From a virus, in IMG/VR virus record IMGVR_UViG_3300019752_000005, positions 12,626 through 76,625 of that record: 64,000 nucleotides of DNA; one strand, written 5' to 3'. Shown here in pieces: positions 7,703 to 63,111 of this stretch. How positions within the stretch are numbered: position 1 is the stretch's first letter; every line of letters starts with the position of its first letter. A model generated the notes under the pieces. The model was not told the DNA's origin. It worked only from the letters and a program-made list of their open reading frames with translations, and did not search any database. The translations under genes were made by a program, and so were the position numbers.

Positions 7703-7945
7703 ATGTTAACGAAAGAAGAGATAAAAATAGTTAAAGAGCTGCGCTTAACAGCAAAAGTAGTTGGTTCTTTATTAATGTTATTTGGTTATGGTGTTATAGT
7801 ATTTCTTGTTGAAGGTGATCCTGTGGTTTATATTGCAATTATATTATTGCATTTTGTCATAGAAGGTGGGAGTAACTTATTTGATAAGGGAATGGAGAGT
7901 GATAGAGAAATTATTGATAGCTGGTATAAGGTGAAAAATAAATAG
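7703..7945 (+). CDS. small 2-TM membrane protein
   Basis: Two hydrophobic helices. Confidence 0.6.
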   Translation: MLTKEEIKIVKELRLTAKVVGSLLMLFGYGVIVFLVEGDPVVYIAIILLHFVIEGGSNLFDKGMESDREIIDSWYKVKNK

Positions 7946-7973
7946 GGGAATCACACCCCTATCTTCAATATCT

Positions 7974-8483
7974 TTAGATATTTATTTTCTTAACTTCCAC
8001 GCTAAGAGCTAAATCAAATAGAAAGTCTAGTAGTAAATCAATATTTTGGTAACCATCACACATATCTACCACTTGTTCTGTGGTTAGGTGCTTCTGCACA
8101 CCTCTCATAACCGCACCTAAACTATCGTGTGACTCAACGATAGATACATCATGACTAAGTGTTTCTTTATCAAAAACTGAAACCGCGTATTTGTTTTCTT
8201 TTGGTCGTTTATCCACCAGCATTCCTAACCCATCTTCTTTTGATTGACGTTTCTGGAATGCTGTTTGTTGGTGTTCGATAACTCCAATAGCGCAGTCTCC
8301 AATATAGGCAGTACTTTTTATTTTATCAATATTATTAGCATCCATAAACCAACTACCAGCACCCTCGATTTCTGACAAACCTTTCTTCAAAGCATCCAGA
8401 TCGCTTACAGCACTTACAACAACCTGTTGAATATTTTCTTCTGGATAATTGCACAAAGCCACCGTATAGGTTTTAAGATCCAT
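7974..8483 (-). CDS. hypothetical protein with an internally duplicated ~75-aa domain (paralog of 8808-9254)
   Basis: Two copies of Y[TA]V...V.[AS].[SD]..A...G...NID... Confidence 0.7.
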   Translation of the reverse strand: MDLKTYTVALCNYPEENIQQVVVSAVSDLDALKKGLSEIEGAGSWFMDANNIDKIKSTAYIGDCAIGVIEHQQTAFQKRQSKEDGLGMLVDKRPKENKYAVSVFDKETLSHDVSIVESHDSLGAVMRGVQKHLTTEQVVDMCDGYQNIDLLLDFLFDLALSVEVKKINI

Positions 8484-8794
8484 TATTCACCACCATTAAT
8501 ATTAGTGTGAACAACATACTTCTTGATTAATGAAAATTTATATTCATTATTTACAAGAGTTTGTTGAAGTTCTGCATCTGTAGCTAAAAAATAAGCTATT
8601 TTTGATAAGCATATAAACCCAAAAATCAGTGCTGAAAACACCATAATTAGGCTATTCATAAATCCGTTTACAGAGAAAAATCCAGCTATAGCGGATACAG
8701 TCATTACGAGAAATAAATACCCTAACCATTTCTGTGCAATACGACTTTGTTTTAATGTTAGTTTTCTTTTTCCACTCATTGTTTGCTTTCCCAA
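8483..8794 (-). CDS. membrane protein (2 TM)
   Basis: Basic N-terminus followed by two TM helices. Confidence 0.6.
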   Translation of the reverse strand: MGKQTMSGKRKLTLKQSRIAQKWLGYLFLVMTVSAIAGFFSVNGFMNSLIMVFSALIFGFICLSKIAYFLATDAELQQTLVNNEYKFSLIKKYVVHTNINGGE

Positions 8795-8807
8795 TTGGTT
8801 AAAAAAA

Positions 8808-9254
8808 TTATTCTGATATACATCTTATCTCCATATGACCATCATAAAGAACCTCTGCGATTTCATCAATACATTTACAGTCTTTTATTTCATCGTAACT
8901 ATAATGCTTGGATGCCATCATAATAAAAGCATCAAACTCACTCTCAGCCATAACAATTTCAATTGAAGAGTCTTTAACTTGGAAGTCAGCGAAAGACATG
9001 GTATATTTGTTAAGTGGTTTAACTTGATTTTCAAGAACACCAATAACCATGTTAGCATCAAAAGCCAACCGTTTCATTTCATCTAGTGAGTTGCATTCCT
9101 CAAACCCAGTTAAACCATCAGGTGCTGGTGCTAACATCTTGCGGATACCAGCCATTAACGCTTCACATTCTGATGCCGCTTTAACCTGCGTCATAAGCAT
9201 ATTGTTTGTGAATGAATCTGTGTAAGATACTGTATAATTTTTCATGAAAAACAC
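8808..9254 (-). CDS. hypothetical protein with duplicated domain (paralog of 7974-8483)
   Basis: YTVSYTD...VKAASECEAL and YTMSFAD...VMAESEFDAF; IGVLEN versus IGVIEH. Confidence 0.7.
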   Translation of the reverse strand: MFFMKNYTVSYTDSFTNNMLMTQVKAASECEALMAGIRKMLAPAPDGLTGFEECNSLDEMKRLAFDANMVIGVLENQVKPLNKYTMSFADFQVKDSSIEIVMAESEFDAFIMMASKHYSYDEIKDCKCIDEIAEVLYDGHMEIRCISE

Positions 9255-9278
9255 CTGTTTTTATTGTATGTGGTTATA

Positions 9279-9307
9279 ATATTAGATTGTTTGGTGCCTT
9301 ATGTCAA
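9279..9307 (-). promoter_or_regulatory. sigma70-type promoter
   Basis: TTGACA-17-TAATAT on the minus strand. Confidence 0.7.
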
Positions 9308-9351
9308 GTTTTAATCAAAAAAAAAGAGGGTTACCCCTCTTCTTTTATTCT

Positions 9352-9879
9352 CTAATTATCTTCTACCTTATCAACTTTATTTTTGCTCTCAATCTTTGGT
9401 TTCAAACAATAATACTTAAAAAACACCCCATCCCCCACAAGAGGATGGTAAAATAAAGATACTTTAGGATTAAAGATATCGCGCAATAAACCAATACCAT
9501 ATTGCTTAGGTAATTTAAAGCCAAATGTTTCCGCATAAAACCTGATAGTATCCCATGCTAGAAACTTAAATGTTTTATCTGGGTAATCATATTTAATATC
9601 AACCACTAACACACCACGTTTAACCTTATTTGTGTATAAGGTAATAGTGCTACCCTTGGGTAGTCTTGCACCGTTTTTAGGATCGGTATAATAACTCTCC
9701 ACGCTTGTTTTTAAGGCTTGAGGAAACTCACCATCAGAAAAGTCTTTACCATTATATGATAGTTTACCACTATCACCGTTAAGTGATTCTGTAGCTACAA
9801 AAATTCTATCACTGTTCAATTGACCGCTTGTTAGTGTTGCTGTTAACTTGTGTATAGTTCTATATCTATAGTCGCTCAT
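9352..9879 (-). CDS. hypothetical protein preceded by the CTATATTTTA motif
   Basis: AGGA RBS; CTATATTTTA (reverse complement) at 9921-9930; terminator-like hairpin at ~9317-9346. Confidence 0.65.
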   Translation of the reverse strand: MSDYRYRTIHKLTATLTSGQLNSDRIFVATESLNGDSGKLSYNGKDFSDGEFPQALKTSVESYYTDPKNGARLPKGSTITLYTNKVKRGVLVVDIKYDYPDKTFKFLAWDTIRFYAETFGFKLPKQYGIGLLRDIFNPKVSLFYHPLVGDGVFFKYYCLKPKIESKNKVDKVEDN

Positions 9880-38970: not shown

Positions 38971-39717
38971 CTAATTTTTCAACCACTCAGTGCCACTTAT
39001 TTTATATTTTAAGTTAAAGTGCTCAATATCATCTTTAATTTCTATTGCAAAGCAATACTTGGGGTGCGATTCATCAAGCATCTCTTCAAAAATTTCTGCA
39101 ACATGAAGCTCCCCACCACATAACCAAGGCTCCTTCAGCATGTTTTCCATTGTACCAACAATACCGAAAGACCTTGTAACCACATTGCTTGGTTTAGAAA
39201 TATGCTTATCTTCCATATCACTGGATATCTGGTATTTTATTTTGTAAACACCAATCTTACGAATAATAGCCTGCACTAACTTAGGTAACCCACATTTAAT
39301 ATATTGCTGGTAATCAGCACCCAAATCGTCCTTCATTTTTTCCTTAGCCACTTCATCCCAGTTTGATGGGCATGTGATATAGATAGTGTATGGCATACGT
39401 GGTGTTAAACCGTTATGTTTCATAGATGATAAGTGGGATAGACAACAAAAATCATCTATTGCACATATTATTTCATAAGGGTTATGCTGATACTTTCCTA
39501 AGACATGATATGTATCATAATCAAATTCACTTCTATTTAACACACCAGATTCCAGTGCGCTATTTAAGTGGTTGTAGAAGATATCACTACTTGGTGTTTC
39601 TGTGTGAACTTCCTTATAAAAATTAAAGATAATCAAACCAAGATCATATAATCTTAAAACTGGTTTTTTTTGTTTACCTATTAATAAGTTAATCTCTCTT
39701 TGGTATTTCGACATCAT
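38971..39717 (-). CDS. AbiEi-like (type IV TA) antitoxin homolog, orphan
   Basis: LSHLSSM..NGLTPRMPYTIYIT...MLKEPWLCGG..HV matches the AbiEi-family pattern; no AbiEii neighbour. Confidence 0.6.
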   Translation of the reverse strand: MMSKYQREINLLIGKQKKPVLRLYDLGLIIFNFYKEVHTETPSSDIFYNHLNSALESGVLNRSEFDYDTYHVLGKYQHNPYEIICAIDDFCCLSHLSSMKHNGLTPRMPYTIYITCPSNWDEVAKEKMKDDLGADYQQYIKCGLPKLVQAIIRKIGVYKIKYQISSDMEDKHISKPSNVVTRSFGIVGTMENMLKEPWLCGGELHVAEIFEEMLDESHPKYCFAIEIKDDIEHFNLKYKISGTEWLKN

Positions 39718-44361: not shown

Positions 44362-45132
44362 TCACTTATCAGACCTTATTATTAACACCTCTTTAGCGTC
44401 TTTCCTAGATGTTTTCTTGCACGCTATATTTCTCTTGACATCAAAAAAAACGAACTCAAAACCCTTGCCAGAATACAACTCTATTATATCTATATCAGCT
44501 TTATTGGATACAACAACATCTCCGTCTATTGAAGATGCGTATTTACATAATCTAACTTGATCACCCCATGAAAATCCCTTACCTGTATAGCCATTAAATG
44601 AATTATGGTATGGTGGATCAATATAAACAAAATCACCATCTCTTGGTTGAACATTACTAAAATCTGTGCAGGTGAATTTAAAACTACTAAACACATCTTT
44701 ATAGGCAAGAAAATCTTTTTTGTAATTTATATTGAAATAACTACCCATACCAACATTAAAGTCACCTCTCTTGTTGAATCTAACTAATCCATTAAAGCAG
44801 GTTCTATTTAAATAGTAGAATAGCTGCGCTGCATACGCAGTGTTTTGATTGTCAAGATCGTTAAATACATCACGATAATAATAATATAAATCTTTATCGT
44901 TCCTCATATCTATATCGCAAACCAATCCGTGCTGAATTTGTTTATAAAGGTTGATCACATGCGGGTTTAAATCATTCAGCACAGCATCATTAACACCTAA
45001 ACCTAACGCAACAGAAACACCTCCAGCAAAAGGCTCAATAAGCCTTTGTTCTTTTTTATAGTATTTTTTTAAGGTGGGTATAAGCCAACGTTTACCGCCA
45101 GCGTATTTCAACACAGGATTTAACAAGCTCAC
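44362..45132 (-). CDS. dam: DNA adenine methyltransferase (Dam/D12 class)
   Basis: LKYAGGK, EPFAGG, LNRTCFNGL.R.N..G.FN, DPPY. Confidence 0.93.
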   Translation of the reverse strand: MSLLNPVLKYAGGKRWLIPTLKKYYKKEQRLIEPFAGGVSVALGLGVNDAVLNDLNPHVINLYKQIQHGLVCDIDMRNDKDLYYYYRDVFNDLDNQNTAYAAQLFYYLNRTCFNGLVRFNKRGDFNVGMGSYFNINYKKDFLAYKDVFSSFKFTCTDFSNVQPRDGDFVYIDPPYHNSFNGYTGKGFSWGDQVRLCKYASSIDGDVVVSNKADIDIIELYSGKGFEFVFFDVKRNIACKKTSRKDAKEVLIIRSDK

Positions 45133-51904: not shown

Positions 51905-53968
51905 TTTGTTTTTCCTTGTTTATTTCCCAATTAATAACAACGTTCGCTTCTTTAAAATCACTGGCTGGTTTTAATTCATTCCCTAACCAACTACCTATTA
52001 TGTTAGGGTCTGTTGGTAAATACATATTTAACACGCCACCAACTCCAACACCGTGATTTTTAATGGTAGCTTCAACTTTACCCCTTGAACACACATCTAA
52101 CACATTTTCTAACGATACTGGATTATTAGAAAATAGGTTGAGAGGTAAATCCTGATTTTTGTATCTCAGAATATTACTAGTCACTCTTGTTTTTCTTCTT
52201 CTCTTTTAAATACTCAATTGCTGACATGATACCCTGTAAATCATGACCCATTAAAATATGAGAACCACCACACCAATCTTTATCTGTAATGGTTATTGCA
52301 ACCCTGTTATGTATTACAGCCCCGTAGGTATATCTAACGCCAACACCAGCTTTTTCACTAAGCTTGTTTAATTTACTCATAGCCTTTAAGTATGGGCATA
52401 ACAAGCAATCTAGATACTCATCACTCGCACATCTAATAATAAAACTACCGTAGTTCTCATCAGATATATCATCCGCCTGTAAATTTAAAATCATCTCATT
52501 ATCATTATAACCACCGAAACTGTACACTGCCTTTAAATCCAGCTCACCTAATAATTTTTCAACCTTCTCGCTAAATCTCATATTTTATATTCCAAAATTA
52601 AAAAAACGCAACACAAAATTATGTTACGCTTTAATTATAACATATATAAATTTATTCACATATTTCAGATTTTTTACAAAACCATATATACCTAATATTG
52701 ATTGTGTTTTTTAGCTCACCACTACCAATCATCGTCACCATCTAAATCCTTGAGTAAATCTGATATTGATTTATGGTCGCTAGTCCAGTGGCTTGTTTCC
52801 ACATCATCACCTACAGGCTTCTTATTAATAGTTTGTTCATTAATTGGTGTAGTATTATTGGGTGTACGCACACCATCCTTTAAGCTTACATTAAAGCCGT
52901 CGTTAATTAAATCACTAAGCATTAAGTTACCATCTATTGAATAATCAATATCAAACCAGTTTCCAGTACGCTCGACCTCCCTAGCTTTACGCATTAATAT
53001 AGGGATATCATCCTCAGCTATGCTATACACAATACCCATCGTGGCGTAATCGTAATAAGAAACCCCCTCAAGCAGTTGAATAACGCAACTTTTGCCTAGC
53101 ATACCCCTATTTAGTAATCTCTTTATTAGCTTAACGCCTTTCAAGGTTTGATTAAAAAGACGTGCAGCATGATAACCGTCACTATTATTTAACACTTCAT
53201 AAGGAATATCCTGAAAATCAAATCCATTATTCCAAGACAAAACAAGTTCCAGTAAATACAATATATCATGTTGCGGCGTTTTAGGCATGAAACTGTGTTG
53301 AAGCAAATATTGATACTTGGCTAGGCATTCAATTAGAATATCTTTAGCTTCCTCGTCATTTCTTTTATCACCCCAACCCGCTTTACTAATAATGTCTAAA
53401 ATTGATTTTTCTGTGTTACTGTTCACTATAATAAATCTCCAAATAAAAAAGCGCGTACAATACGCGCTTTGTGTTTAATTATAGCAGGGATTTGCTATAC
53501 AATTTTCATCTCCTCAATCAACCCACCTAACTCTTTACTACTAAAAAACACGCCTTCACCTAATATAGCGAACTGGTCACTACGTTCCTTAGCTTTGTCT
53601 AGGTTAGATGATAAATACTCAGCTAAAAAACCTTTCCATCTCACATCAGAATAATTAATCCATTCATTTTTACTATCATCATAATAGAACCAACCAATAA
53701 GCATATACACAAAGGTAATAGCACCATATTCATCATTAGCCAAGCTAATTAGATTTTCCAAATCATCTAGGTAATCCTTAACTTGCGATATAGCTTTATC
53801 AGGTTCGCTATAATCAATATCCACTGAGAAGGCTAACCAATCATGTGGTTTTGAAACTAAAGAAATTTGATGATCTACATCAGTGTATCTTTTAAACTCA
53901 ACACCATTAAACCCTAAATCTTCAGCTTGAAAATAAATTTCAGCAAAGTCTTTTAAGCCATACATCAC
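51897..53968 (-). other. accessory CDSs 51897-52184, 52177-52581, 52722-53426, 53495-53968
   Basis: ORFs with RBSs; 52177 and 53495 belong to the 55-56 kb paralog family. Confidence 0.6.
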
Positions 53969-54492
53969 TTATTATCCCCCAAATAATAACAAACACTACT
54001 ATCAATTATCTCGCAATCAGCAATATATCCATCTAACTTATCCCAATAAACACCATATTGATTAACCTTGCATTTTTCCACTAAGCCATCATGCAACTCA
54101 AACCCTCTGACTTTCCCACCTTTTATAGGTGTGCAGGATTTTAAATGAGGATGGTTTTCCAAGATTAAATTTTTATTCTCGAAATCTTTAGATAACATCA
54201 CACGTAAATTAATGTTATCTAACACATGACTACTATTTGTTAAAAGTATAACAATCTTACCCTCCTTAACTTGACGAGAAATAAGCTCGTTTGAAGAGCA
54301 ATGTCTTGATGGATGCTTGAACGCTTCAGGTGTATCAATTATCAACACATCTTCATTATCTGTACGAATCATTTCAACGTCTTCATAATTCTCATAGGAA
54401 AGTATGTAGAGATGACCGCGCTTTAGCTTTGTTATGTATTGTTTAATTGCCGATGTTTCTAATGATAAAATGTTGTTTTCAATTATTAGCAT
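53965..54492 (-). CDS. degenerate C-terminal half of an AAA_15/AAA_21-type ABC ATPase (copy 2)
   Basis: LIIDTPEAFKHP...VILLTNSSHVL.NINLRVML; no Walker A. Confidence 0.65.
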   Translation of the reverse strand: MLIIENNILSLETSAIKQYITKLKRGHLYILSYENYEDVEMIRTDNEDVLIIDTPEAFKHPSRHCSSNELISRQVKEGKIVILLTNSSHVLDNINLRVMLSKDFENKNLILENHPHLKSCTPIKGGKVRGFELHDGLVEKCKVNQYGVYWDKLDGYIADCEIIDSSVCYYLGDNK

Positions 54493-55021
54493 TTTTCTTC
54501 CATTTAACTGTTTCTCTTAGGGTATCATAAAGCTCATCACCGATACTATTGGTTGTAGCAATAAATTCATCAATAAACTTATTGTTACAACCGTACTTAT
54601 CAACCTTAATCTCTTCTATGTTATCACCAACAAGGTTAAACGCTCTCACTTTTTTGTGATTGATTCCAGTGTTTTGCTGATAATACTCTGCTGCTGGCGG
54701 TAGATCAATGCATGTTGGGTCTAAATTGTTAAGCATGATTCTGAAGTTAATATCCTGCAACACCCAATCACTCCCAGTTAGAAGCAGGATGGATTCACCT
54801 TTTTTTAATAATTTTGCGATGGATTCGTTTTTATCGCAATGATGCTGCGGGTTATTGTAGGTTTCTGGTGAATCAATTATAACTATGTGATCTTGAACAC
54901 GAATCCAATCATAATCTGCATCTTTACGAATATCATAAAAAACTATATAAAGAAAATATTTTTTAACCTTAAAAAGCTTCTTCTGATTAAAGTACATTGT
55001 TTTCTTGTTAATTGTTAGCAC
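54479..55021 (-). CDS. degenerate C-terminal half of an AAA_15/AAA_21-type ABC ATPase (copy 1)
   Basis: VIIDSPETYNNP...ILLLTGSDWVL.DINFRIML...VDKYG....ID; no Walker A. Confidence 0.65.
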   Translation of the reverse strand: MLTINKKTMYFNQKKLFKVKKYFLYIVFYDIRKDADYDWIRVQDHIVIIDSPETYNNPQHHCDKNESIAKLLKKGESILLLTGSDWVLQDINFRIMLNNLDPTCIDLPPAAEYYQQNTGINHKKVRAFNLVGDNIEEIKVDKYGCNNKFIDEFIATTNSIGDELYDTLRETVKWKKNANN

Positions 55022-56523
55022 ATTATTCTCCTATCTCGCTTGTTATCTAAAGCTTGCTTTACATGGTCATGTATTTCAGATTGATCTAGTTCTGGTTCAA
55101 GTAGAGTTGAGCCATCCTTATCAGTTATGATTGGGTATCCATATCTAAAAGTGAACCCTAAATCATGTCTTGCGCACTCACTATTGTATTTAATACATAA
55201 GTCAAGCCAATCACCAGCTAGTTCAATACAAGCTTGTGTATGTTTTTCATTAAAGACTACAAAGTAGTCTGATTCCCCGCTCTCATTTGATCCCAAACAA
55301 ATGCAAATGCTATCTTTGTGTAGGTTAAAGTCAACAATATTTATACCTATCAGTTGACCCTTGAATAATAATTGATCTAACTTATCCATTTAATACAACC
55401 TTTTAATATCCTTAATCCAACTAATAAAATCTTTTTCATATTCACCCAACATATCAGCCCCTTCATATTGAAAATCTCGATTATCAAAAGAATTGATCGC
55501 GCTAACTTGGATGTAAAAGCCACTATTGTAATGGAAGTGGATTTCAAAGCCTAACTCTTTTAATTTTTGCTCTAACAGCCAAACCTTATTACTCCATACC
55601 GTTACATTATTCCTAGCCCCCAATTCACTATAGCTCTCGAAACAATCTGGAGATAGTTGATGCACAGCCTCCCCATAACTACCATTACCTTCGATAATAG
55701 GGGTGATGATGTGTTTATTACCCTTAACTTGATAATAAACACCATCAAAACCTAGTTTATTTAAATACTCAATATTCATATCAATTACCTACCTCACTAT
55801 AAACCACATGCTCGCACGAATTCTCACTGCCAAACATAAAGTAAGAAACAAATCCAATCATGCTAATTATAGCAACTATTGAAAACAGCGTATTCTTATC
55901 CATTATATATTACTCAATATAAAACCCAGATTAAGTTATTTATGGTTACTTATTATAATCTTGAACTGAGATACCACTCTCAGCACGACTATCCCATAAG
56001 TTCAAGTGATCAGATAACTTTTCCTTCACGAAATCTAGCGTACCAGTAACTCTCATGCGCATATCTATTGTACCATCATCACATAGAAATAAAAGTGTTG
56101 CTTGTAAACTTACACCGTTGTCGTGGAAAGAAATATCTGCACCGTGTGTGCCTGTTCGTCTTATTAGGCTTTCCATGCACTAACCTCCTTAATAAACTTA
56201 CCCACCATAGCTTTTACCTCATCAAAATCCAAAGTTAAATCACGGATAATTAATTCTTTATCAGAATTTGAATCATAAATAAAAACACCATCATTATCAA
56301 TTGAAAATGAGATTAAATTTACATCACATGTGTTTTTTATCACCATCCATTTGTCAACCCATTCCTGTGTGTTTTTAACAACATCTTCATATTCACCATT
56401 GAATTGTATTACTGGAATCTTATCACTGTAAAATGTGTAGATATAAGCAATGAATTTTTGTTGATCAGGGTGAAATTGTGGGGTCAATTCAAGTTTTGCT
56501 AAATCTCTTAACAGTTGTTTCAT
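55015..56523 (-). other. paralogous ~120-aa accessory CDSs (55015-55389, 55390-55779, 55946-56176, 56164-56523) plus a 40-aa TM peptide at 55781-55903
   Basis: Shared helix-strand layout. Peptide MDKNTLFSIVAIISMIGFVSYFMFG... translated by hand. Confidence 0.55.
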
Positions 56524-60100: not shown

Positions 60101-60129
60101 ATTATATGGTAGTGTGAGGTAGATGTCAA
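60101..60129 (-). promoter_or_regulatory. consensus sigma70 promoter
   Basis: TTGACA-17-TATAAT. Confidence 0.9.
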
Positions 60130-60160: not shown

Positions 60161-60185
60161 AAAAAAGCCGCTGGTTAGGCGGCTT
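60161..60185 (-). terminator. Rho-independent terminator
   Basis: AAGCCGC..GCGGCTT stem with an A run on the + strand. Confidence 0.8.
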
Positions 60186-60961: not shown

Positions 60962-61789
60962 TTATTCACCTTCATCAACGTGACGACCAATCAGAATATT
61001 AACTTCTTCACTATAGTAGCCGTTAGACTCTCCAAGCCAACGCATCCATAGTTCGCCACGGTTAGTTTGGATTTTATAAAAAGTCCACGTTTGACTTTCG
61101 CACTTATCATCATCGCTCTTATGGTTGCTGGAGACTAACTCAGCACTAAGCACTTCAGCACCTACAAATAATTCTGCGTCACCCTCAAAGTCAACAAGAT
61201 TTACATCTTCACAACAATCTTGCTCATGATAAACTTTTACGGCAAACCCATCATCTGTGTGAAAAATAACCTCTTCACTATATTTCTCCAGCCCTTCAAT
61301 CTTAATCAGCTTTTTACCGTTAAGGAATGTTATATCATTAACTGGATATTTACTGTTAAAGTAGGTATCGAAACTGGCGACTAACACTTTGTTATCACAG
61401 GATGCTGAATTATTAAGTGCATCAAGTCTTAATAAAACATCTTTCGTGGTGTGCTCGTCAAATGGAATCTGTGCTTTATCAAAGCTTGGTATATTAAATA
61501 AGTCCCAGTGTTTGATTTCATAATGATTGGAGATTTGACCTGTAGGTAATTCAGCTACCACAATAAACCAGCCGCCACCGAAACATTCCTCACCATCGTA
61601 ATGGCAGGTTGACTTATGCACGTTGTGCTTACCACCTTCAGCCCACTCATTAAATAAGGCTGCGTTATATTGCATTCTCATATCGTAAAGCTCGTCGAAT
61701 GTATGGTATCCATCAGAGATACCACCAGTATTTAAGCCTTTATCGTTGAACTGGGATATTATTTTGTTTGTTTTATCTATTAAACTCAT
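60962..61789 (-). CDS. fusion of two conserved phage domains (SDGYHTFxELY domain plus HxQDCCE...SNGYYS domain)
   Basis: ISDGYHTFDELY...LPTGQISNHY...WDLF; HEQDCCE...WTFY...WLGESNGYYSE. Confidence 0.75.
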   Translation of the reverse strand: MSLIDKTNKIISQFNDKGLNTGGISDGYHTFDELYDMRMQYNAALFNEWAEGGKHNVHKSTCHYDGEECFGGGWFIVVAELPTGQISNHYEIKHWDLFNIPSFDKAQIPFDEHTTKDVLLRLDALNNSASCDNKVLVASFDTYFNSKYPVNDITFLNGKKLIKIEGLEKYSEEVIFHTDDGFAVKVYHEQDCCEDVNLVDFEGDAELFVGAEVLSAELVSSNHKSDDDKCESQTWTFYKIQTNRGELWMRWLGESNGYYSEEVNILIGRHVDEGE

Positions 61790-63082: not shown

Positions 63083-63111
63083 ATTATAAATAAGTGTGTA
63101 TGTGGTGTCAA
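63083..63111 (-). promoter_or_regulatory. consensus sigma70 promoter
   Basis: TTGACA-17-TATAAT. Confidence 0.9.

Follow-up and report, generated by a model that had tools for sequence, protein, structure and literature searches.

The virus record IMGVR_UViG_3300019752_000005 of IMG/VR, a lytic-type phage genome of 76,625 bp (34% GC) that has inverted terminal repeats and is rated complete, contains two short overlapping open reading frames (ORFs), here called ORF B and ORF A, whose products are homologous to the C-terminal part of the ATPase of PD-T4-4-type bacterial defense systems. The window analyzed is the stretch of 64,000 nucleotides corresponding to bases 12626–76625 of this record, and all coordinates given below refer to it, unless another contig is named. 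Both ORFs lie on the minus strand. According to the ORF listing, ORF B (54479–55021) starts with GTG and encodes a mini-ATPase of 180 amino acids without P-loop, while its paralog of the same architecture, ORF A (53965–54492), starts with ATG inside the end of ORF B and encodes 175 amino acids; the overlap measures 14 nucleotides. BLASTP aligns the two proteins over 139 residues with 35% identity (E = 2e-22), which confirms the two intact, overlapping paralogs that an initial annotation of this DNA had described. As the start of ORF B, the GTG with its AGGAG ribosome-binding site (55028–55032, minus strand; read from the sequence, with a 6-nucleotide spacer) is preferred, if unproven, over an alternative ATG at Met9.

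Homology to PD-T4-4_A-Type ATPases

Both ORFs match the PD-T4-4_A profile of PADLOC (PDLC04032), ORF A with an E-value of 8.8e-16 and ORF B with one of 2.8e-16, and the matches are confined to profile positions 345–471 of 474 (346–471 for ORF B). Weaker PADLOC matches were to PDC-M47A and NsnB, and the PHROG family phrog_13167 is matched in the same C-terminal-only manner. When a profile built from 40 full-length relatives was searched against the whole phage genome, it recovered only ORF B (E = 3.6e-24), at positions 325–451, and ORF A (E = 3.9e-17), at positions 324–451 of the 453, and ATPase profile positions 1–323 had no counterpart in the complete phage genome. The homologous part amounts to about 128 positions, i.e., the last ~28% of the ATPase, and corresponds to residues ~43–170 of ORF B. 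The initial annotation had spoken of C-terminal halves without a Walker A half; the absence of Walker A extends to the complete phage genome, but what has been kept is too small a part to be called a half.

A phmmer search of 1.84 billion cluster representatives returned 108 relatives, most of them 410–510 amino acids long with Walker A near residue 26, and the match always runs through their last ~125 amino acids. The full-length relatives are AAA_15 proteins of ~460 amino acids, representatives of which exceed the Pfam gathering scores for both AAA_15 and AAA_21. The closest genome-encoded relative among the loci listed, the ATPase of locus L005, is 33% identical to ORF B (E = 2e-20), in an alignment that reaches the last residue of the L005 protein. 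Taken together, PADLOC, phmmer, Pfam and the full-length profile bear out the proposed origin in a defense-type ABC ATPase of the AAA_15/AAA_21 kind; GajA, AriA and PtuA, which had been named as examples of such ATPases, give way to the PD-T4-4_A/PDC-M47A family, relatives of WonA that are accompanied by a PD-(D/E)xK nuclease. By their sequence, ORF A and ORF B are evolutionary derivatives of the PD-T4-4_A/PDC-M47A clade.

Other searches added little. NCBIfam gave nothing meaningful for either ORF and a PDB sequence search gave nothing, a word-indexed protein search, run for proteins of near and of longer length, returned the ORF itself or nothing, and a single-protein scan of IMG/VR found no relative. 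Pfam yielded only a Dynamin_N match (E = 0.012), which is below the cut-off and was rejected.

Degenerate Catalytic Motifs

For a comparison at the residue level, ORF A and ORF B were aligned with 62 full-length relatives. The order Walker B, D-loop, H-loop and the core segments quoted in the initial annotation are present in this alignment, and the replacement of both the catalytic Glu and the H-loop His, also reported there, is seen in it. The degenerate Walker B motif of ORF B, I-V-I-I-D-S-P-E (residues 46–53; 54863–54886, minus strand), keeps the Asp (D50) and has Ser51 in place of the catalytic Glu; in ORF A the motif ends in D53-T54-P55-E56 (54325–54336, minus strand), in which the Asp is likewise kept and the Glu is replaced by Thr, and the invariant P-E that follows is retained in both proteins. 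The degenerate H-loop reads T82-G83-S84-D85 in ORF B (54767–54778, minus strand) and T85-N86-S87-S88 in ORF A (54229–54240, minus strand), so that the His has become Gly and Asn, respectively. The catalytic Glu and the H-loop His are each 98% conserved in the full-length relatives. Further replacements, given here for ORF B first and ORF A second, concern an invariant Leu (Asn/Lys), an invariant Gln (His in both ORFs), an invariant Glu (Asp/Asn) and a conserved Asn (Phe/Leu).

Other conserved positions are retained in both ORFs, namely the Ile next to the Walker B Asp, a Gly ahead of the H-loop strand, the T-x-S residues on either side of the H-loop position, an Asn-x-x-Ile-Met-Leu helix, and the conserved residues of a C-terminal extension (G144, D151 and I154 in ORF B numbering). 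This extension, which in ORF B comprises residues ~100–180 (54482–54724, minus strand), consists of a helix, a three-stranded sheet and a long terminal helix. A motif scan found no Walker A (GxxxxGK[ST]) in either ORF, and the Q-loop, the ABC signature motif and the insert (sensor) domains are absent as well, together with the whole stretch of ~290 residues that in the relatives separates the N-terminal strand from Walker B. Since the P-loop, the catalytic Glu and the H-loop His are all missing, both proteins are predicted to be incapable of binding or hydrolyzing ATP in the way the family does, and, because they fail in every functional respect, they are not members of the ABC ATPases in a functional sense.

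Predicted Fold

AlphaFold2 models computed from an 83-row alignment show a compact single domain, with a predicted local distance difference test (pLDDT) score of 88.6 and a predicted template modeling (pTM) score of 0.83 for ORF A, and with 81 and 0.72, respectively, for ORF B, in which residues 1–40 are weak. A β-strand from the N-terminal leader is modeled as part of the core sheet, confidently in ORF A and with low confidence in ORF B. In ORF A this strand (residues 28–33) lies beside the Walker B and H-loop strands, and in the alignments it corresponds to the ‘LTIIxG’ strand found ahead of the P-loop in the full-length relatives and in several short ones. Because the N-terminal strand is kept beside the core, the two proteins have the look of ‘mini-heads’ with an internal deletion and not of plain C-terminal fragments, with no significant sequence match for the leader strand.

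Comparison with 48,161 PDB representatives by VIA-align placed ABC-type ATPase heads in all of the top 50 positions, with Rad50 (Z 7.1, rmsd, i.e., root mean square deviation, 2.5, 88 residues aligned), GajA (Z 6.0) and retron Eco8 (Z 5.7), and further matches to nucleotide-binding domains of ABC transporters, SMC, UvrA and MutS; the Z values are modest by the tool’s own caveat, and the match list is uniform. The ESM Atlas yielded a match to a 437-amino acid AAA_15 cluster with a template modeling (TM) score of 0.74 normalized by the query. By contrast, Foldseek against the PDB gave no significant match for either model (best E 0.12 and 0.01), with OLD and ABC ATPases still in the top rows. 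The structural match to ABC ATPases that had been anticipated from the sequence is thus found with VIA-align and the ESM Atlas, but not at significance with Foldseek.

Bacterial Relatives and Their Operons

PD-T4-4 is an experimentally validated two-gene system composed of an AAA_15 ATPase and a PD-(D/E)xK nuclease (PMC9519451; PMC10952713; 10.1101/2025.07.10.664194), and the literature relates it to WonAB. In a scan of one genome per GTDB species, at least 406 loci were confirmed, and gene contexts were taken from the best 80 of these at least 406. The best 80 come from Gammaproteobacteria (including the mat-forming Beggiatoaceae and Thiothrix), Cyanobacteria, Desulfobacteria, Chloroflexota, Poribacteria, Campylobacterota and Methanosarcinaceae. 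At ~65 of the 80 loci the ~460-amino acid ATPase is followed by an ORF of 170–230 amino acids that overlaps it or begins within ~40 nucleotides, and the six downstream ORFs that were checked are all PD-T4-4_B or PDC-M47B nucleases (E down to 1e-93); inspection of the operons, as suggested in the initial annotation, does therefore place the homologs in defense operons. A profile of 44 nuclease sequences found no nuclease homolog in the phage genome at E ≤ 1. PD-T4-4, PDC-M47 and WonAB-type systems are widespread, as indicated by the at least 406 genome loci counted here, and WonAB-like operons are reported from ~1% of bacterial genomes (PMC12137116).

PD-T4-4_A of Escherichia coli ECOR58 (Vassallo et al., 2022, PMC9519451) and PDC-M47A share homology with the phage proteins along the whole stretch between the Walker B strand and the C-terminus, H-loop included, and have the same ABC-head fold. 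Unlike PD-T4-4_A (~460 amino acids), the phage proteins have only 175–180 amino acids, their catalytic Glu and H-loop His are replaced, they lack an adjacent PD-T4-4_B nuclease, and they occur as two tandem copies in a lytic-type phage.

Two diverged loci for ATPases of the PD-T4-4_A type (L004 and L018) were observed in a single metagenome-assembled genome (MAG) of Alteromonadaceae, so that one host can hold two paralogous systems, a possible reason for the presence of two paralogs in the phage. A complete PD-T4-4-type system, with an ATPase of 478 and a nuclease of 207 amino acids, is located on a viral contig (L167); as complete systems of this type do occur on viral contigs, phages have access to the source gene.

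Duplication and Selection

In the tree, ORF A and ORF B are sisters with a support of 99 by the Shimodaira–Hasegawa-like approximate likelihood ratio test (SH-aLRT), and their branches are long (1.88 and 1.54, respectively, versus a median of 0.61). Common to both are the derived substitutions of Gln to His and of Ala to Asn at invariant positions, and the catalytic Glu has given way to a small polar residue in each of them. Because these derived replacements are shared, inactivation most likely took place before the duplication, with both copies remaining intact afterwards.

A ~92%-identical variant from a 2021 marine metagenome (run X6) spans window positions 53943–54092 and 55206–55396. Over codons ~134–175 of ORF A, the eight listed differences are all synonymous and in the third position, with no non-synonymous change, whereas the ratios of synonymous to non-synonymous differences in the flanking ORFs are 5:4 (a 157-amino acid ORF) and 3:7 (a 124-amino acid ORF). 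These two flanking ORFans therefore evolve fast in the variant, unlike ORF A. The sole change seen in ORF B, Tyr22 to Gly, falls within the poorly modeled leader, and runs X3–X5 contributed only identical fragments at low depth. With the tree, the shared substitutions and the 8:0 ratio of the variant, purifying selection on ORF A and ORF B is well supported as opposed to decay, in line with what the initial annotation had supposed.

A Possible Decoy of Host Defense

The origin of ORF A and ORF B from a defense ATPase is, like their truncation, inactivation, duplication and selection, well supported, and we infer that the two proteins bind host components and counteract defense. That they are anti-defense decoys against a system of the PD-T4-4/WonA type is a reading to which an even chance can be given. 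In this reading, both ORFs go back to one captured piece of a bacterial OLD-family ABC ATPase of the PD-T4-4_A/PDC-M47A type, which in bacteria is the sensor/activator subunit of a two-gene anti-phage system with a small PD-(D/E)xK nuclease as effector. The phage copy dropped the P-loop, the Q-loop, the ABC signature, the sensor inserts, the catalytic Glu and the H-loop His; it kept the family-specific C-terminal extension and, from the core sheet, the strands of Walker B and the H-loop, and was then duplicated within the phage. The products, probably expressed from a host-type early promoter (see below), may act in either of two forms. In the first, a pseudo-dimer of ORF A and ORF B would dock and sequester the host nuclease through the C-terminal extension and, since this scaffold is predicted to be unable to bind or hydrolyze ATP, the nuclease would not be activated. 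In the second, ORF A and ORF B would pair with protomers of the host ATPase to give dead heterodimers. Both forms would leave the defense system disarmed, and the two diverged copies could represent the halves of the pseudo-dimer or be aimed at two host paralogs.

A system of the required type is WonAB of Vibrio cholerae, which combines an OLD-ABC ATPase bearing a C-terminal extension with a small PD-(D/E)xK nuclease (PMC12137116). The C-terminal extensions of WonA, once dimerized, are predicted to form the surface on which WonB docks, WonB is toxic only when active WonA is present, and ATPase-dead WonA variants lose WonB (PMC12137116). The substitutions E300A and H333A of WonA abolish defense, as does the equivalent mutation of the Walker A Lys (PMC12137116); WonA needs K34, R182, E300 and H333 for defense, and ORF A and ORF B lack the equivalents of these residues. 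On the other hand, the dimerizing, WonB-docking extension predicted for WonA is the very part that ORF A and ORF B retain, WonA having been compared with them by description and not by sequence. Because a docking extension of the WonA type is kept on an inert core, a decoy is the most economical reading.

In co-folds of ORF B and ORF A, with the L005 nuclease (PD-T4-4_B type) standing in for that of the host, ipSAE came to 0.53, 0.43 and 0.50 (median 0.50), compared with 0.01, 0.00 and 0.00 for the controls, in one of which ORF B was replaced. The runs have at least 73% of their contacts in common, and the partner has a pLDDT of at least 76; the tool rates the outcome as weak support. Of 80 solved complexes 58 attain the ipSAE mark, as do two of 110 mismatched pairs; at values of 0.60 or less, however, only seven of the 80 solved complexes do so, together with both passing mismatches. 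The co-fold slightly raises the probability of a decoy.

Several observations weigh against the decoy reading. The co-fold is only a weak pass, in which the nuclease came from an unrelated MAG and the alignments were author-made, and the purifying selection is seen in a single contig of 150 nucleotides at depth 2, with four further differences near its ends unlisted. The leader of ~40 residues ahead of the homologous part has no detectable sequence homology. The neighboring genes are all ORFans, so that the locus cannot be called an anti-defense island, and no close homologs in cultured phages were found when the locus and ORF B were searched by blastn and tblastn against 50,697 phage records. 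Finally, the layout of a phage-like region with a related mini-ATPase (L003, see below) could mean a different, self-contained function.

Co-option of an immune component by a virus is the concept also known from viral Cas homologs that serve as anti-CRISPRs (Katz et al., 10.1101/2023.06.24.545427), which assemble into defective complexes or sequester a partner. They belong to another immune system and another protein family, and they are experimentally verified, whereas ORF A and ORF B are known from sequence and models. Gad1 resembles the proposed role of ORF A and ORF B in that it targets a nuclease complex based on an OLD-family ABC ATPase, i.e., Gabija (PMC10781630), but it has no sequence relationship to its target, the GajAB complex, around which it wraps (PMC10781630), while ORF A and ORF B are homologs of the ATPase that they would target. 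In the literature searched there was neither an inhibitor of PD-T4-4 or WonAB nor a decoy derived from an OLD-family ABC ATPase; the strategy of ORF A and ORF B would thus be a known concept, that of the viral Cas anti-CRISPRs, newly encountered in ABC-ATPase/nuclease systems. A natural dominant-negative fragment would mark the part of the ATPase that is needed for assembly with the nuclease, the hypothesis being that the C-terminal extension is the docking platform. If the decoy reading is true, the evolution of inhibitors by co-option of immune components would extend from CRISPR-Cas to abortive-infection systems of the ABC-ATPase/nuclease kind, and catalytically dead, truncated defense homologs in viral genomes would provide a search rule for anti-defense genes.

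Alternative Explanations

Among the alternatives to a decoy, the one that survives best, unlikely as it is, holds that the fold has been exapted for a non-immune phage role, for example that of a small adaptor binding DNA or a replication or packaging factor, in the form of a degenerate ABC/SMC-head-like domain. Small uncharacterized proteins (115–190 amino acids) of similar predicted fold are indeed present in unrelated phages: the Foldseek matches of the ORF A model in BFVD include protein A0A172JI18 of Bacillus phage AR9 (131 amino acids, TM by target 0.75, E = 3.4e-6), a protein from Siphoviridae labeled ‘AAA domain’ (E = 5.4e-6), and uncharacterized proteins of Pseudomonas phage PspYZU05 (115 amino acids) and Ralstonia phage phiRSL1 (117 amino acids). 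The ESM Atlas, in addition, contains all-viral clusters of 50–85 members that resemble ORF B, and such breadth might reflect a housekeeping role. However, these viral look-alikes, to which A0A8S5NJK7 also belongs, are leads from BFVD and the ESM Atlas that stand unaligned and without known function, the sequence homology of ORF A and ORF B is specific to the PD-T4-4_A/PDC-M47A clade and runs up to the C-terminus, including the extension, and the two genes lie in an ORFan accessory block and not among replication or morphogenesis genes. AR9, PspYZU05 and phiRSL1 are experimentally tractable, which makes their look-alike proteins usable leads.

Slightly less probable again is that ORF A and ORF B form the non-catalytic scaffold of a self-contained phage module, in which the coupled 157-amino acid ORF would be the partner or effector; the module would be a minimal exclusion, toxin–antitoxin-like or regulatory unit derived from a PD-T4-4-type system with its effector replaced. 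The 157-amino acid ORF (53495–53968, minus strand), the last gene of the unit, has 4 nucleotides at its start in common with the end of ORF A, so that stops and starts overlap from ORF B through ORF A to this gene, and a single terminator-like hairpin stands at the end. A similar arrangement is found in the phage-like region L003 (positions 7788–9699, plus strand, of a 189-kb IMG/VR contig), which adjoins head-tail adaptor and tail genes. Here an internally deleted AAA_15 ATPase of 200 amino acids, with Walker A intact and the motifs D-T-P-E and T-N-S-D, is followed with a 13-nucleotide overlap by two paralogous ORFs of ~200–205 amino acids that belong to no known family, an order that mirrors that of ATPase and effector. 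The L003 genes may represent another kind of mini-system or else a decoy that has partners.

The faint PADLOC match of the 157-amino acid ORF to REase_II, its only one, would fit an effector but is not significant (E = 0.007), and this ORF has no Pfam or PHROG match. As a hidden PD-T4-4_B nuclease it was rejected, hhalign giving a probability of 0.9% against the nuclease profile, and the two L003 partner ORFs were rejected in the same capacity, as they have no similarity to that profile. A self-contained module is further disfavored in that ORF A and ORF B, without P-loop, are not expected to bind ATP while WonAB needs ATPase activity, and in that the putative partner is less conserved than ORF A in the variant (5:4 versus 8:0).

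Functionless, decaying remnants of a defense system once present in the phage or in an ancestral prophage are a disfavored and very improbable explanation, for although phages and prophages do carry complete PD-T4-4-type systems (as in L167) and the catalytic motifs of ORF A and ORF B are degenerate, two frames of ~180 codons are intact in a genome of 34% GC, with a Shine–Dalgarno sequence and coupled starts, the inactivating changes are common to both copies, neither of which was thus disrupted once the duplication had occurred, the C-terminal extension still has its conserved residues, the eight listed differences of the ORF A variant are all synonymous, and the AlphaFold models are confident and compact.

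Short Dead Relatives

The 108 relatives of ORF A and ORF B include short proteins of 141–265 amino acids that are similarly degenerate, all of them on short metagenome contigs (among these dead homologs are P0005, P0010, P0015, P0033, P0048, P0049 and P0062). Their motifs are, for instance, D-K-P-E with T-S-S-D, F-P-E with T-Y-S-D, and C-P-E with T-N-S-D, and several have kept the N-terminal strand and lack the P-loop. A word-indexed search with an alignment of the short forms yielded only two more, and a metagenome profile scan (alignment A6) returned almost exclusively full-length active ATPases, plus one short form (L086), whose neighbors are small ORFs on the same strand, an orphan methyltransferase and the gene of a sliding clamp, with no nuclease. 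The position of some dead forms in the tree, next to different clades of full-length proteins, suggests that such forms arose more than once. Eight other dead short forms cluster with ORF A and ORF B (SH-aLRT 83), but this cluster may be due to long-branch attraction and was not taken as evidence for a single origin.

It is conceivable, though doubtful, that phages have repeatedly cut OLD-family ABC ATPases of nuclease-coupled defense systems down to catalysis-free mini-heads that lack the P-loop and retain just the core strands plus the C-terminal extension on which the effector would dock; these would then represent a widespread, hitherto unrecognized class of decoys and the first inhibitors of PD-T4-4/WonAB-type systems. 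Such a class would comprise the tandem pair described here and the dead short forms of 141–265 amino acids, and may extend to the proteins of AR9 and phiRSL1.

Transcription Unit and Neighboring Genes

Promoters and terminators were called by consensus scans only. ORF B, ORF A and the 157-amino acid ORF stand at the end of a unit for which a perfect sigma-70 consensus (TTGACA-17 nt-TATAAT) at 60101–60129 on the minus strand is the candidate early promoter; a terminator-like hairpin (60165–60185) directly precedes this consensus. The next strong terminator-like hairpin on the minus strand after this promoter is located at 53448–53470, just after the 157-amino acid ORF, and has a 10-bp stem with five G-C pairs and a T-run; ORF B, ORF A and the 157-amino acid ORF would thus be the last genes of a candidate early-type unit made up entirely of ORFans. 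A second perfect sigma-70 consensus is found at 63083–63111 (minus strand). Both perfect sites head ORFan blocks and are likely early promoters for the host RNA polymerase, the total count of promoter-like sites in the region being not above chance. A 10-mer that is the candidate late promoter of the phage does not occur upstream of the ORF A/ORF B block.

The phage, which is present in microbial-mat metagenomes, with no RNA data set among the sequencing runs listed for it, encodes a large terminase subunit, a portal protein, a primase, a helicase and a ribonucleotide reductase (RNR). It is novel, as its portal is only ~30% identical to those of known phages. The genes that surround ORF A and ORF B form an accessory block away from those for replication and morphogenesis. 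Elsewhere in the window, at 44362–45132 (minus strand), lies an orphan N6-adenine DNA methyltransferase of the D12 class (Pfam E = 4.3e-39), for which no restriction partner was noted and which is of a typical phage anti-restriction kind. The ORF at 38971–39717 (minus strand) matched no Pfam family at E ≤ 0.001. Only one gene of the ORFan block upstream of the ORF A/ORF B pair has a family assignment; it lies at 60962–61789 (minus strand), and its product contains the domains WDGH (E = 4e-34) and DUF7448 (E = 5e-24).

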